A stretch of DNA of 30,702 nucleotides from a virus (IMGVR_UViG_3300022468_000539:1-30702); one strand, 5' to 3'; positions 16-12,933 are shown, counted from the stretch's first letter. Numbers and translations are program-made. The notes: generated by a model from the sequence alone, not told the origin.

Positions 16-2046
16 TTAAAATACCACGCGAACCACTCGCGAAAACTTACCATTTACCTTCACCAACACCGAGTTACGAATTGTACTCGAAAAACCGACT
101 CCAGACAATTGCTTTTCAGCTTTTTCTGTCTTTAGCTTAGAACCCACCATTTCCAAAGCCTTACGATGTGGTTTCAAGTCATCACGCAAGAATTCGTTAT
201 AGAATCCACGTGCTGTGTCTTCATTCGCACATCCTTCAATCATGAAGAAATAGTGTTTGTTACCAAAACTTTTTTCGTCCCAGAAGTTAGGTGAGTGCAT
301 CACCACATTCACAGGGACAAATGTGTTTGTCGCCACACCCCAAATTTGCTTGCTTGGGCCACCAGAAACGCTACTCTTCATGACAGGTTCGACACGAATA
401 CCGTTTTTGTCTTTGATGATCTTTGCAATTTCAACAGTGGAACCATGTCCAATCACGTTATTGGTTTCAAAGTGATGTACTTCACCAAAAAGGTCAATTT
501 CCACTTGGAAACCAGCACCTTTAGATCGGCGTGAAAAGTTATAAACCTTCAGCGAATATGTGCCATTTTTCATACGGGAAACACGTTCATAGAAAATGTT
601 TTCCACCGGATGATCCATCATTCCAGAACCACCGTTAGCATCCACATCCAATTTACCACCATTACTAGAAAGACTGTGGCGTGTCATGTAGTAGATGTGT
701 CCATCTGGTTCATACATATGGAAATCCAGATCGTCGGTATAATCCCAAGCCAAACGGCAGCACAATTCACCAGTCACGTTACCACCTGCAGCCTTGACTT
801 TTTCCTTGATGGAATCAGTCAGATCACCAGTGTAAGACCAAGAGAAATCATTACCCCACTTGAATAGAGGGTTTGCACTTGCGTTCTGTGGAGCAATCAA
901 GCTAACAAAGTTGCCAGCATGCTTGTTTTCCACCATGATTTCAATCGAATCTGCCTTTGGCAAAATGTCAGCAAGGAACTTTTCAATCCCGACTTCATCA
1001 ACCTTATCCAACTTCTTAGGGTTGGTCTGCACAGACGCTGCGAGTTGATCGAACACATCACCAGACATGACAGACTTTGCGTTACGGTTGGCGTACAGCA
1101 CGTTGTTGATGGTAATGTCATCCAGAACCGCATATCGACGTTCCAGAGCAGAAGTCAATCCCAATTCAGTAATACTCTTCTTTGCATTTTCAATCATCTG
1201 CTTTGTCACCAAAGCAGTAGAGCGTCGATAGTTTATAGGTGCAACCATCAATTCATAGCTGCGAACTGCACTTTCCAGTTCTTCATCTTTTGATAGTGCA
1301 TCCACCAGTTTACCAATGGATGTGTTGCGGAAGCCGCTAACGGAGCCCGGAATAGTTGCAATATTTTCCCAAACATATGTAGCTTTCTTTGCAGCCGACA
1401 ACTTATCCCACTTCTTCTTCATCTTCAAGAATTCGGTGACTTGGAACTTCATTTCGTCGCCACGATACAGAGAACCGTTTGCAATCAAATCCAAAACAGT
1501 ATCTGCCGCATCTTCTGTCAATTCATTCAATGCACGAGTAGTGGTTTGTACAGATGTACGCACTGCACCAAGCATGGTTCCAATCTGGTCGCTACGCACA
1601 ACATATTGGGCAGGAATCATCACGTGGAAGTGATCCCACTGAGCAGCACCACCACCGACCATGGCAGAGAAATTCTTTTCTGTACCCGCAGAACGTTCGT
1701 AATGCAAGAATTTGTCGGTGACTGGTTTGCTCTTCACGTAAGATGCCAATGCATCTGCTACGACTTGGTAAGCAGGTTCACCGGCTACAACACAATCCCA
1801 GATGGTTTCAACAACACCGTCTTTAACGGTTACTACGTTACCCACAGCACGAATGAACTGCTTGCAGCAATTGCAATCATGTTCGGTGCGATTTTTGTAG
1901 ATTGGGTTGGTACCGTCTGGGAATGCGCCCAAATAGGTATCCCAGATTTCAGTTTTATCTGTGGCGGTGACAAACAAGTTGCCTGTCTTAGCCATCTTGT
2001 CAAATTGCTTTTGTACCGCATTGCGGAACTTTTTAAAATCCATCAT
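16..2046 (-). CDS. Large conserved phage protein (676 aa) with N-terminal HDCNCC motif and C-terminal YfaP/DUF2135-like segment
   Basis: Long ORF with AAAGGT RBS upstream. HDCNCCKQF possible metal site. LAWDYTDDLDFHMYEP...LDVDANGG...ENI resembles the YfaP/DUF2135 DLDLH-x-EP signature. Function unknown. Confidence 0.75.
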   Translation of the reverse strand: MMDFKKFRNAVQKQFDKMAKTGNLFVTATDKTEIWDTYLGAFPDGTNPIYKNRTEHDCNCCKQFIRAVGNVVTVKDGVVETIWDCVVAGEPAYQVVADALASYVKSKPVTDKFLHYERSAGTEKNFSAMVGGGAAQWDHFHVMIPAQYVVRSDQIGTMLGAVRTSVQTTTRALNELTEDAADTVLDLIANGSLYRGDEMKFQVTEFLKMKKKWDKLSAAKKATYVWENIATIPGSVSGFRNTSIGKLVDALSKDEELESAVRSYELMVAPINYRRSTALVTKQMIENAKKSITELGLTSALERRYAVLDDITINNVLYANRNAKSVMSGDVFDQLAASVQTNPKKLDKVDEVGIEKFLADILPKADSIEIMVENKHAGNFVSLIAPQNASANPLFKWGNDFSWSYTGDLTDSIKEKVKAAGGNVTGELCCRLAWDYTDDLDFHMYEPDGHIYYMTRHSLSSNGGKLDVDANGGSGMMDHPVENIFYERVSRMKNGTYSLKVYNFSRRSKGAGFQVEIDLFGEVHHFETNNVIGHGSTVEIAKIIKDKNGIRVEPVMKSSVSGGPSKQIWGVATNTFVPVNVVMHSPNFWDEKSFGNKHYFFMIEGCANEDTARGFYNEFLRDDLKPHRKALEMVGSKLKTEKAEKQLSGVGFSSTIRNSVLVKVNGKFSRVVRVVF

Positions 2047-10487: not shown

Positions 10488-11852
10488 CCAATCGAAGACA
10501 CATCAAACTCGTATGAATATAAACTAAAACAAGCTGGCCTAGCAGAGCCGCTATCTACATACTTGGCTGACCCGTATGATGAAGATCGATTGGCTGCAGG
10601 GTTTCCTGCATTTAACTTTGATTCTAATGGTGGTGTTTCTGGTTTAAGATCGGTAGATGATACTTCCATTAGATTCAATTCAATTTTTGGTAGTGGTTGG
10701 AATAGAGTTTTTAGTGGCCCACCCGCTGCAGCAACTGCGTATTCTTTCTGCAATCAAATCCCATCACGACCAAAATTTGTTGGTGTCCAACTCGGGTTTT
10801 TAAATTTGGGGGCTACACCATATACCGTATCTGGATGTAAAGTTGCTGCCACCCCTACCGATGGTAATACTGGTCAGACATTAACATGGTCTGATGCTAC
10901 ATTTGATAGCGGAGTTTCGTCAAGCACTACACCTAAAGTAATTTCTGCAGGTTCTGGTGCTACAGTTAATGCAATTCCCGGTGGTTTGACTGCAACTGAT
11001 GTAATTGCAGTCAATTCAGTGGAACGTACTGATATTGTTGGAAATCCATATTTGCTTCAAGTGAGAACATACATCAGTACGTCATCAAACTTGCATGCAT
11101 CACAAGCAGGTGGTATCTCTGCATTTAGAACTGCAACTGGTCTTGAGTATGGCTCCACAATTTTAGCAGGTGATCAAGTCACTAACCCAACTACAAACGC
11201 TATGACTCCAACTGGCGCTGGAACGTGGATTTGCCCAAGTGTAGTTAAATTCTACTATGAGGCACCAACAATTAATGTTGCAGGAATTGGCGATTCTCTT
11301 ATGCGGGGCCAAGGTTCAAATTCTGGACACACAAGTGCTGAAGAAATTGCATGTCGCCAACTTTCAAGTGCATCAAAAATGTATGCATATTCAAATTTTG
11401 GTGTTTCTGGTCAAGGTCTAGCAGCAAGTTTTGCAACAGCACAAGCAGTTTTGAATTCTGATGTATTCCGACCACAAGTTTTAGTTTGGAAAGCATTCTC
11501 ACCAAACGATGCATATACTCAATCAAATTTTGATGCGGCATATCTATACCTATTGAGATTGATGGATTTATGCAATCAGAAGGGTGTTAAGTTAATTGTT
11601 CGGAATGCACAGCGTTGGAATCAGTCAGTAGGTGTAACAGCTTCTATTGAAGTATTCAATGCACGAGTTGCTAAATTAGCTGGTCTGAATATCAATGATG
11701 ATTATGGTATTCTTTCTGCTGGTTCTTCCGATCCAACAAAAAATCTTTTGGCATATAGCGTGAGTGGTGCAGATGCTCACTTGTCTGATGCAGGGTATAC
11801 TGCACTATCCCAAAGTATTAGAACATTGATTCAGTCTGTATATCCTGTATAA
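10485..11852 (+). CDS. SGNH/GDSL esterase, probably virion-associated
   Basis: All four blocks are present: GDSL (11289-11300), NFGVSG, FSPND and D-A-H. The N-terminal half is beta-rich and non-catalytic. Confidence 0.85.
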   Translation: MPIEDTSNSYEYKLKQAGLAEPLSTYLADPYDEDRLAAGFPAFNFDSNGGVSGLRSVDDTSIRFNSIFGSGWNRVFSGPPAAATAYSFCNQIPSRPKFVGVQLGFLNLGATPYTVSGCKVAATPTDGNTGQTLTWSDATFDSGVSSSTTPKVISAGSGATVNAIPGGLTATDVIAVNSVERTDIVGNPYLLQVRTYISTSSNLHASQAGGISAFRTATGLEYGSTILAGDQVTNPTTNAMTPTGAGTWICPSVVKFYYEAPTINVAGIGDSLMRGQGSNSGHTSAEEIACRQLSSASKMYAYSNFGVSGQGLAASFATAQAVLNSDVFRPQVLVWKAFSPNDAYTQSNFDAAYLYLLRLMDLCNQKGVKLIVRNAQRWNQSVGVTASIEVFNARVAKLAGLNINDDYGILSAGSSDPTKNLLAYSVSGADAHLSDAGYTALSQSIRTLIQSVYPV

Positions 11853-11855
11853 ATA

Positions 11856-12400
11856 ACCCATGACGCAACCCGCAGCATGATAAATCAAAAGAATTAAAGA
11901 ATAAGGAAAAGAGTACAGGCGTAGCCTTGCCGTAGGCACTTTCTAAGTGTTTCTACTACAATGGTTATTACGTCTTGCTAACTTCTACCTATTCTTTAAT
12001 TCCTGTTTATGTTATGCTGCTTCGAAGAGAGGGTTAGTCTCTAGCTCTTATGATGTTCCGTATCTCTTGGTGAGCCGTACTGGTCATTCAATCTTATCCA
12101 ATTATCGACCGAGTTTTTATCGTTAGATTGCTCTAACGCTCAGACTCCATATGTGGTAGTGCGCTCCACACAACTGAGTTAAAATCATGCCTTTCGGTGG
12201 GTCGTGTCTTGTATGCCCAGATGAGACATACTTCCTGCGGGTTGCTAGTGAACAGGTGGTTGCTTGCTTACCTTCGTTATAATGGATCGCTAATCCATGT
12301 TCTTTTACGTCTAACTGAAACAGCAAGTAAAGACGACGACTTTTTTGGTACGCTCCCATCGTGAGGATAAATAGCAGATTGAGTACCACGAAACCCGCTA
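11856..12400 (-). ncRNA. Candidate large structured non-coding RNA (~550 nt), family unassigned
   Basis: No credible ORF. Multiple hairpins, including a 7-bp stem with GCAA tetraloop (12121-12138) and a stem needing G-U pairs on the minus strand (12211-12231); long imperfect inverted repeat 11872-11906/11988-12020; 11-bp long-range pair 11865-11875/12235-12245; leftward TTGACA at 12434-12429. Confidence 0.5.
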
Positions 12401-12406
12401 AGTTGT

Positions 12407-12434
12407 ATTATTTACTGCAACTATTTTTTGTCAA
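12407..12434 (-). promoter_or_regulatory. Leftward promoter candidate (TTGACA-16-AATAAT, overlapping TAAATA)
   Basis: Perfect -35 at 12434-12429, imperfect -10 at 12412-12407; points into the structured non-coding region. Confidence 0.45.
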
Positions 12435-12440
12435 GAAGTC

Positions 12441-12469
12441 TTGCGTTTGTCTGTAAGATGCTATACAAT
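12441..12469 (+). promoter_or_regulatory. Sigma70-type promoter for uvsY (TTGCGT-17-TACAAT)
   Basis: 17-nt spacing; ends 23 nt before the uvsY ATG. Confidence 0.6.
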
Positions 12470-12492
12470 GGTCTATTTATCATGAAATTCCT

Positions 12493-12933
12493 ATGCTGAA
12501 CCACGAACAACTGATGGCTGAATGGGCCAAAGACTCTACTATCGATGAAACCAATCTGATGAACGAAATGTATCGTCATCCGATGAAACATAGCAAGTAT
12601 CTCACGCATCTACAAACTTACAAGGTGAAGCTGCGCCAGATGACCGCTAAATATATGAGTCTGCGCAGTGACAAGGTTCGGTACTACAACGGTGAAATGC
12701 CGAAGTCGGAATTGGCAGAACGGGGATGGCAGCAATATTTGTTTGCTAAACCGTTGAAGGCTCAGATGGAAGCGTTGCTTGAAGGTGACGCTGATCTGCA
12801 AAAGCTGCAGGAACAAACTTTGTATATTGAGACATTGGCACAGTCATGTGAGTCTATTTTGAAAGACCTTGGGAATCGGTACTACCTATTCAAGAGCATG
12901 GTCGAATACCAGAAATTTTTAAGTGGTGCATAA
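12493..12933 (+). CDS. uvsY: Recombination mediator protein UvsY
   Basis: EWAKDSTIDETNL, P-x-x-HSKYL, YYNG and LEGD-x-D match UvsY; directly upstream of uvsW. Confidence 0.88.
   Translation: MLNHEQLMAEWAKDSTIDETNLMNEMYRHPMKHSKYLTHLQTYKVKLRQMTAKYMSLRSDKVRYYNGEMPKSELAERGWQQYLFAKPLKAQMEALLEGDADLQKLQEQTLYIETLAQSCESILKDLGNRYYLFKSMVEYQKFLSGA

Follow-up and report, generated by a model that had tools for sequence, protein, structure and literature searches.

A candidate family of large structured RNAs beside the recombination and replication genes of metagenomic T4-like phages

Large RNAs with complex, conserved folds of tertiary style are rare to our knowledge, and almost all classes of this kind that we know to have a function are ribozymes, cores of ribonucleoproteins or self-assembling particles. 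GOLLD and ROOL, two such large RNAs, typically adjoin transfer RNA (tRNA) genes in phages or prophages. We know of no such RNA in the T4-like phages, a phage group that is very well understood. Described systems that come near in position or size include the T4 origin oriF, which we take to lie directly upstream of uvsY, and ColE1 RNA II, which with its ~550 nt is similar in size to the RNA considered here. The subject of this study is a stretch of DNA of 30,702 nucleotides (IMGVR_UViG_3300022468_000539:1-30702, hereafter the window), a 30.7-kb piece of a 41-kb IMG/VR contig from a T4-like phage, in which a 640-nt gap without a credible open reading frame (ORF) separates a GDSL-like ORF of 455 amino acids from uvsY. 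An earlier note had proposed an undescribed structured RNA of ~550 nt in this gap, and the conserved family and strong covariation described below bear this out. We consider it likely, at a rough probability of 85%, that the minus strand from 12400 to ~11857 is a self-contained non-coding RNA gene of ~545 nt acting through its fold, and we are slightly more confident still that a real structured RNA gene lies on the minus strand.

Relatives of the element were found among ~100 uvsY loci collected through relatives of UvsY from IMG/VR, JGI metagenomes and Logan assemblies. In distant loci, the region upstream of uvsY gave weak and collinear matches to an nhmmer search started from the window's gap, and one iteration brought full-length matches in many more loci to a core of 350 nt (window 12043-12392), the span to which homology at the sequence level extends. 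The iterated search also admitted the L017 clade (L017 and six near-identical contigs) at E = 2e-23, in which the orientation relative to uvsY is the opposite one. A covariance model of the central 159 nt with only two sequences behind it, those of the window and its close relative L001, recovers every member at full length with E values from 3e-29 to 1e-8 and finds nothing beyond the members in the 462 kb of the ~100 uvsY loci. When IMG/VR was scanned with a conserved 19-mer and the result checked with the covariance model, additional members appeared away from uvsY: between gp2 and gp55-gp47-gp46 in a complete genome of 178 kb (L104/L106), between gp4 and gp55-gp47 in L105, and L107 as the third addition. 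In total the family comprises ~15 distinct lineages with sizes of 530-720 nt, all of them metagenomic T4-like phages, and the UvsY proteins of the carriers are only 50-60% identical to one another. The position is always the boundary between late virion genes and recombination-replication genes, either ahead of uvsY, where both orientations occur, or in the interval from gp2/gp4 to gp55-gp47-gp46, and in the uvsY loci every upstream gap longer than 650 nt is a family member, while the gaps of non-members are at most ~180 nt.

The comparison of uvsY-upstream regions of relatives, which the earlier note had suggested as a check, revealed compensatory changes that maintain ~18 helices and four pseudoknots in the family (Table 1). 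The alignment consists of short invariant blocks between hairpins that differ in sequence and still pair, and those hairpins of the earlier note that fall within the conserved core recur in the homologues with their sequence changed and their pairing kept. In a MAFFT alignment of 12 sequences, RNAalifold found 21 pairs, 19 of them compensatory, including the long-range CGACC/GGUCG, and three independent subgroups gave the same helices on the minus strand with 29, 33 and 26 compensatory pairs. In the model-derived alignment of the central domain, pairing extends to 98.0% of the cells, and changes on both sides are seen in 30 of its 37 pairs; its covariation score was 0.716 compared to 0.204 +/- 0.019 when shuffled (0/500), and controls in which the partner was slid by 1-3 columns were only 33-40% paired. 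In the 5' domain 96.0% of the cells are paired and 26/30 pairs are doubly changed, with P2 counted in. P2 itself is 92% paired, with three of its five pairs doubly changed and its sole failures stemming from one false match in the alignment; it occurs in six different complementary sequence versions and, since it was left out of the covariance model, its pairing cannot be an effect of fitting. The strand-swap test, which is alignment-free and sets the duplex energy of the two strands of a helix from one phage against that of strands combined across phages, placed fourteen helices at 0/5000 permutations, among them P1, P2, P3, P4, P5 and P13. Further compensating changes are seen in PK3, where L009 has GGGC/GCCC and L017 has GAGC/GCUC. 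Taken together, the compensatory changes argue that the fold is maintained by selection across divergent phages.

The way in which the alignments were built has to be kept in mind. MAFFT placed several hairpins 1-3 columns out of register, and because this misregistration barred seeds of several sequences, either the window and L001 together or only the window served as the seed of the covariance models. The single-sequence model of the 5' domain missed the most distant lineages (L008, L100 and L017) and picked up two chance matches. An automatic helix finder applied to small MAFFT alignments was dominated by spurious helices, and a two-layer RNAalifold procedure did not recover the pseudoknots. 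P2, PK4 and the strand-swap test are independent of model fitting.

The 3' boundary of the RNA is drawn from the long-range pseudoknot PK4. The left 185 nt of the window's RNA aligns at the sequence level only with L001, which also matches a 12-bp AGCAACCCGCAG repeat seen in one other genome. Wherever enough downstream sequence is present, a segment 126-311 nt past the conserved AAGAGCU is complementary over 8-10 bp to the P6 loop of the same phage. This pairing covaries in 11 lineages with 10 sequence variants, its two strands lying 370 nt apart in the window, and the energy is -18.6 kcal/mol for cognate versus -9.4 kcal/mol for swapped partners (0/10000 permutations). The P6 loop and the distal strand read GCAACCCGC and GCGGGUUGC in the window, GACAAGCAG and CUGCUUGUC in L017, CGCGAGCCCG and CGGGCUCGCG in L032, GGAAAGCAG and CUGCUUUCC in L104, and GAACGCCCCG and CGGGGCGUUC in L107. 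The left 185 nt is considered part of the RNA because its end (11865-11875) pairs covaryingly with the loop at 12235-12245, and from the distal strand together with the following (C)UAUGG the conserved RNA would end at ~11857. The outer extent of 11856-12400 given in the earlier note therefore proved essentially exact, as the covarying long-range pairing supports an extent to ~11857. PK4 is predicted to close the entire 3' half of the RNA. Between the 5' end GCGGGUU (12392-12398) and AACCCGC of the P6 loop (12237-12243) another pairing can be drawn in this phage only; it is not kept in L001 and is probably due to chance.

Within the part closed by PK4, a variable insert precedes the distal strand. 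Its length in other lineages is 126-311 nt, and most of the inserts inspected by eye contain a small hairpin capped by UUCG or UACG, several of them with a GCUACGC-like hairpin beside it. The long imperfect arms reported in the earlier note do exist (11891-11911 with 11982-12002, 21 nt, 86% complementary, and outer arms 11872-78/12014-20), and they proved to be common only to L001 rather than to the family. In the L017 clade (L017:1883-2225; also L018, L024, L046-L048 and L050) a partial tandem duplication affects the 3' part of the RNA gene and comprises GAUACGGAAC, AAGAGCU, a hairpin, the insert, the distal strand and CUAUGG; the strand that pairs with the P6 loop is therefore present twice, ~160 nt apart.

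The assignment to the minus strand, also made in the earlier note, gains support from G-U pairs, loop identities and promoters. The loops GCAA, GAAA, GUAA and UUCG appear on the minus strand only, as the plus strand reads UUGC, UUUC and similar, and the AGUA/GAA loop of P12 is correct only when read on the minus strand. Conserved G-U pairs in P7, P1 and P6 would be A-C mismatches on the plus strand; in P7, the gtatgtct/gggcatac stem of the earlier note, two U-G pairs form on the minus strand only. Summed over all members, the helix energy is -1293 kcal/mol for the minus strand and -1157 kcal/mol for the plus strand, with 111 and 75 G-U pairs, respectively, and for P7 the sums are -112.7 and -73.2. 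The earlier note had seen a leftward TTGACA just outside the 5' end; it is indeed present and is followed after 16 nt by AATAAT, together matching 11/12 consensus positions of a sigma-70-type promoter, from which transcription is predicted to start at ~12400/12399. L001 retains both hexamers with a diverged spacer, and throughout the family P1 is preceded on the minus strand by a sigma-70-type promoter at a distance of 6-30 nt. Over the 60 nt before the RNA, the best promoter score averaged 9.3/12 in 14 members, whereas random windows gave 6.4 +/- 1.7 and the opposite end 7.4; a score of at least 10 was reached by 7/14 members compared to 0.8% of the controls. Because of these promoters, the loop identities, the G-U pairs and the AGUA/GAA loop, the RNA is placed on the minus strand. 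It also appears to be non-coding: the longest open frame is unconserved (91 codons in the window, at most 66 in L001 and at most 44 in L087), insertions and deletions among members are not multiples of three, and the conserved part overlaps no ORF.

The layout of the RNA, collected in Table 1, was derived by reading the sequences between conserved anchors. The other hairpins listed in the earlier note, namely cgttaga-GCAA-tctaacg (P11, recovered by an inverted-repeat search), atggat/atccat (P5) and the nested ctcag/ctgag and tgtgg/ccaca stems (P10), were all found where it had placed them, as was the non-coding gap (11853-12492) before uvsY. The P12 motifs AGUACGG and AUACGGAA are kept in nearly all members, and the internal loop of P12, judged by its sequence, resembles the loop-E/sarcin-ricin motif.

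Table 1. Predicted features of the putative RNA gene and its neighbours; RNA positions are 12401 minus the window coordinate.
Feature	Window position	RNA position	Strand	Remarks
Putative RNA gene, ~545 nt	12400 to ~11857		-	5' end from promoter and first helix; 3' end from covarying distal strand and (C)UAUGG-like motif
Sigma-70-type promoter of RNA gene	12407-12434		-	TTGACA (12434-12429), 16-nt spacer, AATAAT (12412-12407); 11/12 consensus positions
PK1	12347-12400		-	P1, P2 and a small hairpin
P1 (PK1)	12400-12392 with 12380-12372	1-9/21-29	-	9/9 pairs changed on both sides
P2 (PK1)	GGUAC 12387-12383 with GUACC 12351-12347	14-18/50-54	-	5' strand inside P1 loop
Small hairpin in PK1	12367-12354	34-47	-	
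PK2	12263-12335		-	P3 and P4, with P5 inside
P3 (PK2)	CGUCU 12335-12331 with AGACG 12312-12308	66-70/89-93	-	
P4 (PK2)	CUUGCU 12327-12322 with AGCAAG 12268-12263	74-79/133-138	-	Crosses P3, encloses P5; 6/6 pairs doubly changed
P5	12298-12282	103-119	-	atggat/atccat; 6/6 pairs changed on both sides
P6 hairpin, CCUGU/GCAGG	12234-12256	145-149/163-167	-	Stem nearly invariant; one compensatory U-A to A-U change
P6 loop GCAACCCGCAG, 5' partner of PK4	12245-12235	156-166	-	11/11 complementary to distal strand (inverted-repeat search)
P7	12211-12231	170-190	-	gtatgtct/gggcatac; conserved U-G pairs; 8/8 doubly changed, 100% paired
Central domain	12106-12204		-	Closed by P8; holds P9, P10, P11 and PK3
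P8	CGACC 12204-12200 with GGUCG 12110-12106	197-201/291-295	-	5/5 pairs changed on both sides
P9, GAAA loop	12197-12190	204-211	-	
P10, two-tier helix (outer and inner)	12178-12139	223-262	-	Inner 5/5 pairs doubly changed
P11, GCAA loop	12138-12121	263-280	-	7/7 pairs changed on both sides
PK3	GAGU 12147-12144 with ACUC 12114-12111	254-257/287-290	-	97.7% paired, one doubly changed pair
P12, internal AGUA...GAA loop flanked by C-G pairs and small terminal hairpin	12050-12087	314-351	-	Outer helix covaries
Conserved AAGAGCU	12049-12043	352-358	-	
P13 hairpin	12042-12026	359-375	-	Covaries; 0/5000 permutations
UCGAAGCAGCA after P13	12025-12015		-	
Variable insert domain	11884-12014	to ~517	-	Here a long imperfect hairpin around two small hairpins with UACG/UAC-type loops
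UUAUCA	11883-11878		-	Before distal strand; recurs in most lineages
PK4 3' (distal) strand CUGCGGGUUGC	11875-11865	526-536	-	Pairs with P6 loop
GUCAUGGG after distal strand	to 11857		-	(C)UAUGG recurs in most lineages
GDSL-like ORF, 455 aa	10485-11852		+	Stop at 11852
uvsY promoter, TTGCGT-17-TACAAT	12441-12469		+	Read from sequence, without statistical scoring
uvsY	12493-12933		+	Start at 12493

Upstream of the gap the window carries gp2-type and glycan-degrading late genes, and downstream of it uvsY, uvsW, primase and NrdA. The putative RNA gene fills the intergenic gap between complete ORFs, with its own promoter and no flanking exons, and only 4 nt separate its 3' end from the convergent gene's stop codon. 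The 3' neighbour is likewise convergent in L001, L009, L011, L008 and L100, while in L104/L105 and the L017 group a gene in the same direction follows the RNA. At the second site (L104:3926-4555 and L105:2121-2717) this is the co-directional late sigma factor gene gp55, followed by gp47/gp46, and gp55 has a promoter-like site of its own directly past the 3' motif of the RNA. A promoter for uvsY was read in the window, and L001 has TTGACT-17-TACAAT at the equivalent position. The promoters of uvsY and of the RNA are arranged back to back with 6 nt between the two -35 boxes, and therefore each of the two early units could affect the other by interference or co-activation.

The distribution of the RNA is patchy. 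A further ~45 related loci lack it at the uvsY site, and it occurs at neither site in the complete related genome G002 (192 kb) or in the cultured Kyanoviridae relatives BUCT-ZZ01 and C48C1. The complete phage G001 (L002 = L003/L043/L044) carries it at the gp2/gp55 junction. As the RNA is missing at both sites in some relatives, the gene is accessory, occupying one of two neighbouring positions in either orientation. A separate ORF-free stretch of ~580 nt (L002:2072-2653) lies in the same phage upstream of a 96-amino-acid ORF that adjoins uvsY; it has two copies of a ~35-nt direct repeat (...CAGTAGTTTTAAGTGGTACTCGTCAC...), and the RNA models found no match in it. Outside the collected loci, no match to the gap was found by blastn in 50,697 phage records, and two exact words of 21-24 nt matched only the near-identical L001 contig in IMG/VR. 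No carrier was found in 185,579 prokaryote genomes by pattern scan and covariance model, which yielded 27 chance matches; one partial covariance-model match at E = 0.007 was treated as noise. A second pattern scan with a pair of motifs produced, beyond the contigs already recognised as carriers, 10 new loci, all by chance, as none had a covariance-model match even with filters off. The negatives of a loose first-look genome scan are given little weight, because it missed the known members G001 and G004. Many short Logan/JGI contigs with uvsY (L087, L089, L090, L093, L033, L095 and L094) stop within the RNA gene or right next to it, either by assembly breakage (variable insert, strain variation) or by chance.

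Some of the results weigh against a self-contained RNA gene. The best two pair counts come from model-fitted alignments, which favour the modelled structure, and the support for PK3 is modest. Folding energy, to which the earlier note had also looked, was better than in shuffled sequences on both strands, and to a modest degree that does not separate the strands: with 20 shuffles each the minimum free energy z-score was -2.35 for the minus and -3.36 for the plus strand, the minus strand being no better than the plus. Mismatch counts without G-U pairs on single-sequence folds were similar between the strands (6 vs 5 and 25 vs 26). For a terminal closing helix, in which either the 5' end or GUUUA would pair with AAGAGCU, the prediction differs between the subgroups. 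The 3' end of the RNA showed no intrinsic terminator. The family is small, with ~15 lineages known from metagenomes only, and the start, end, strand and abundance given to the RNA are predictions from its sequence.

Of the other explanations, the main rival, to which we give a small probability, is that the transcript is a replication-origin RNA, whose persistent R-loop near uvsY would prime or organise DNA replication while the fold controls the formation of the hybrid. The element lies directly upstream of uvsY, as does T4 oriF, and always at the boundary of late and replication-recombination genes; it has a strong promoter, no terminator and a length close to that of RNA II, and the P6 loop could equally pair with displaced non-template DNA at the distal site, as the covariation would be the same for both. 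However, primer RNAs are not known to need four pseudoknots, GNRA and UUCG loops and a loop-E-like motif, the orientation relative to the neighbouring genes varies, and a complete related genome and the cultured relatives have the RNA at neither site. Moreover, neither a GC-skew feature at the position of the RNA nor an AT-rich unwinding element was identified here. The pseudoknotted, GNRA-rich architecture is also of ribozyme grade, and a self-processing ribozyme or a mobile, intron-like remnant would account for the two insertion sites, both orientations and the patchiness among close relatives as signs of mobility, and for the missing terminator if the 3' end arises by cleavage. This seems even less probable, since no model of group I, group II, RNase P or small ribozymes matched either strand of the window and 8 members, the element stands between genes under a promoter of its own and lacks flanking exons, the loci inspected have no gene for a homing endonuclease or reverse transcriptase beside it, and no target-site duplications were seen.

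A cis-acting transcript, that is a leader or riboswitch, or an antisense or interference unit acting on uvsY or on the convergent late gene, is brought to mind by the back-to-back promoters, by the 3' end lying 4 nt from a convergent stop codon and by the co-directional gene downstream in L104/L105 and the L017 group. We regard it as quite improbable, because most loci have no co-directional gene directly downstream that could be regulated in the same transcript, gp55 where present has its own promoter, and the same RNA stands beside unrelated neighbours in both orientations with its conserved part overlapping no ORF. Finally, Watson-Crick covariation is symmetric between strands and would fit DNA hairpins too, so a signal at the DNA level (cruciforms, protein-binding sites), or else a decayed protein gene, was considered instead of an RNA. 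Such an origin is hardly credible in view of the strand-specific G-U pairs in P7 and P1, the tetraloops that are correct on one strand only, the promoters at the predicted 5' end, the lack of a conserved open frame and the indels that are not multiples of three.

We thus favour a structured RNA gene, and it is of interest what such an RNA could do. Sigma-70-type promoters are the kind that T4-like phages use for their early genes, and the RNA would be made early in infection by the host RNA polymerase and would act in trans as a compact folded molecule. It would most likely be the scaffold of an RNA-protein or RNA-only particle, or a ribozyme, rather than a message, a leader or an antisense RNA. 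A scaffold or ribozyme is preferred because the combination of four pseudoknots with tetraloops and a loop-E-like motif is typical of those and not of primers, leaders or antisense RNAs; on this architecture we would put the chance of a trans-acting scaffold or ribozyme-like role at about even. More tentatively, and on balance doubtfully, the members, with their 530-720 nt and four pseudoknots, might make up a new class of large RNA whose complexity is on the level of ribozymes or 'ornate RNAs' and which serves catalysis or particle assembly early in infection. If so, countering host defence or organising recombination-dependent replication would be possible roles. The fixed junction between virion and recombination-replication genes (uvsY or gp55-gp47-gp46) suggests testable ideas, such as replication start or early host takeover, and with ~545 nt, four pseudoknots and clear boundaries the RNA is compact enough for cryogenic electron microscopy (cryo-EM). 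In addition, RNA genes can fill the seemingly 'empty' gaps of 0.6-1 kb of metagenomic phage genomes, where annotation centred on proteins overlooks them.

The family matches nothing in Rfam or in the literature searched. The covariance-model search of Rfam 15 suggested in the earlier note gave 0 matches at gathering thresholds in the whole window; at E <= 10, both strands of 11700-12600 had only a chance match to a plant microRNA (19.6 bits vs a gathering threshold of 75), and at E <= 5 the 8 other divergent members had one chance microRNA match outside the element. No description of the RNA was found in the literature searched, a search outside which the supplementary list of ~10,000 phage RNA candidates in PMC10690425 falls. 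The resemblance to transfer-messenger RNA (tmRNA) and RNase P RNA is one of length (roughly 350-550 nt) and of having several pseudoknots. In contrast to these, ARAGORN found no tRNA or tmRNA gene in the 30.7-kb window, the Rfam models were unmatched, and no tRNA-like end domain, tag ORF or conserved blocks of RNase P were seen by eye; the earlier note was right to set aside tRNA, tmRNA, RNase P and group I introns. The group I introns of T4-like phages (td, nrdB, psbA) are likewise pseudoknotted RNAs of several hundred nt with GNRA-capped helices in T4-like genomes, but the new RNA lies between genes, is preceded by a promoter of its own and has no exons, no match to the Rfam group I model appeared at E <= 10, and only UUUA stands between the 5' strands of PK2, where P4-P6 would be.

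Like T4 ori(uvsY)/oriF and ColE1 RNA II, the locus is predicted to yield a non-coding transcript from its own promoter; it adjoins uvsY where two modules meet, and it lacks a terminator. It differs from them in the conserved fold of tertiary grade, the variable orientation, the second site at gp55 and the absence from close relatives, and of a T4-type R-loop origin only the position adjacent to uvsY and the promoter are matched here. A further likeness is with GOLLD and ROOL. GOLLD, ROOL, OLE, HEARO, raiA and every other Rfam 15 family are without a covariance-model match, the models of GOLLD and ROOL on either strand of the window and in 8 members, so that the comparison of size drawn in the earlier note was fair and membership in either family is excluded. 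The window's RNA is not beside tRNA genes, having uvsY, or gp2/gp4 and gp55, as neighbours, and the carriers are T4-like phages from metagenomes. GOLLD and ROOL are described as forming multimers by cryo-EM (bioRxiv 10.1101/2024.12.08.627333). Like them, it is a predicted stand-alone, ORF-free and phage-borne gene of at least 500 nt with multiple pseudoknots that came to light by comparative metagenomics, and if the more tentative reading as a new class of large RNA holds, it would form a functional RNA class of its own alongside GOLLD, ROOL and OLE.

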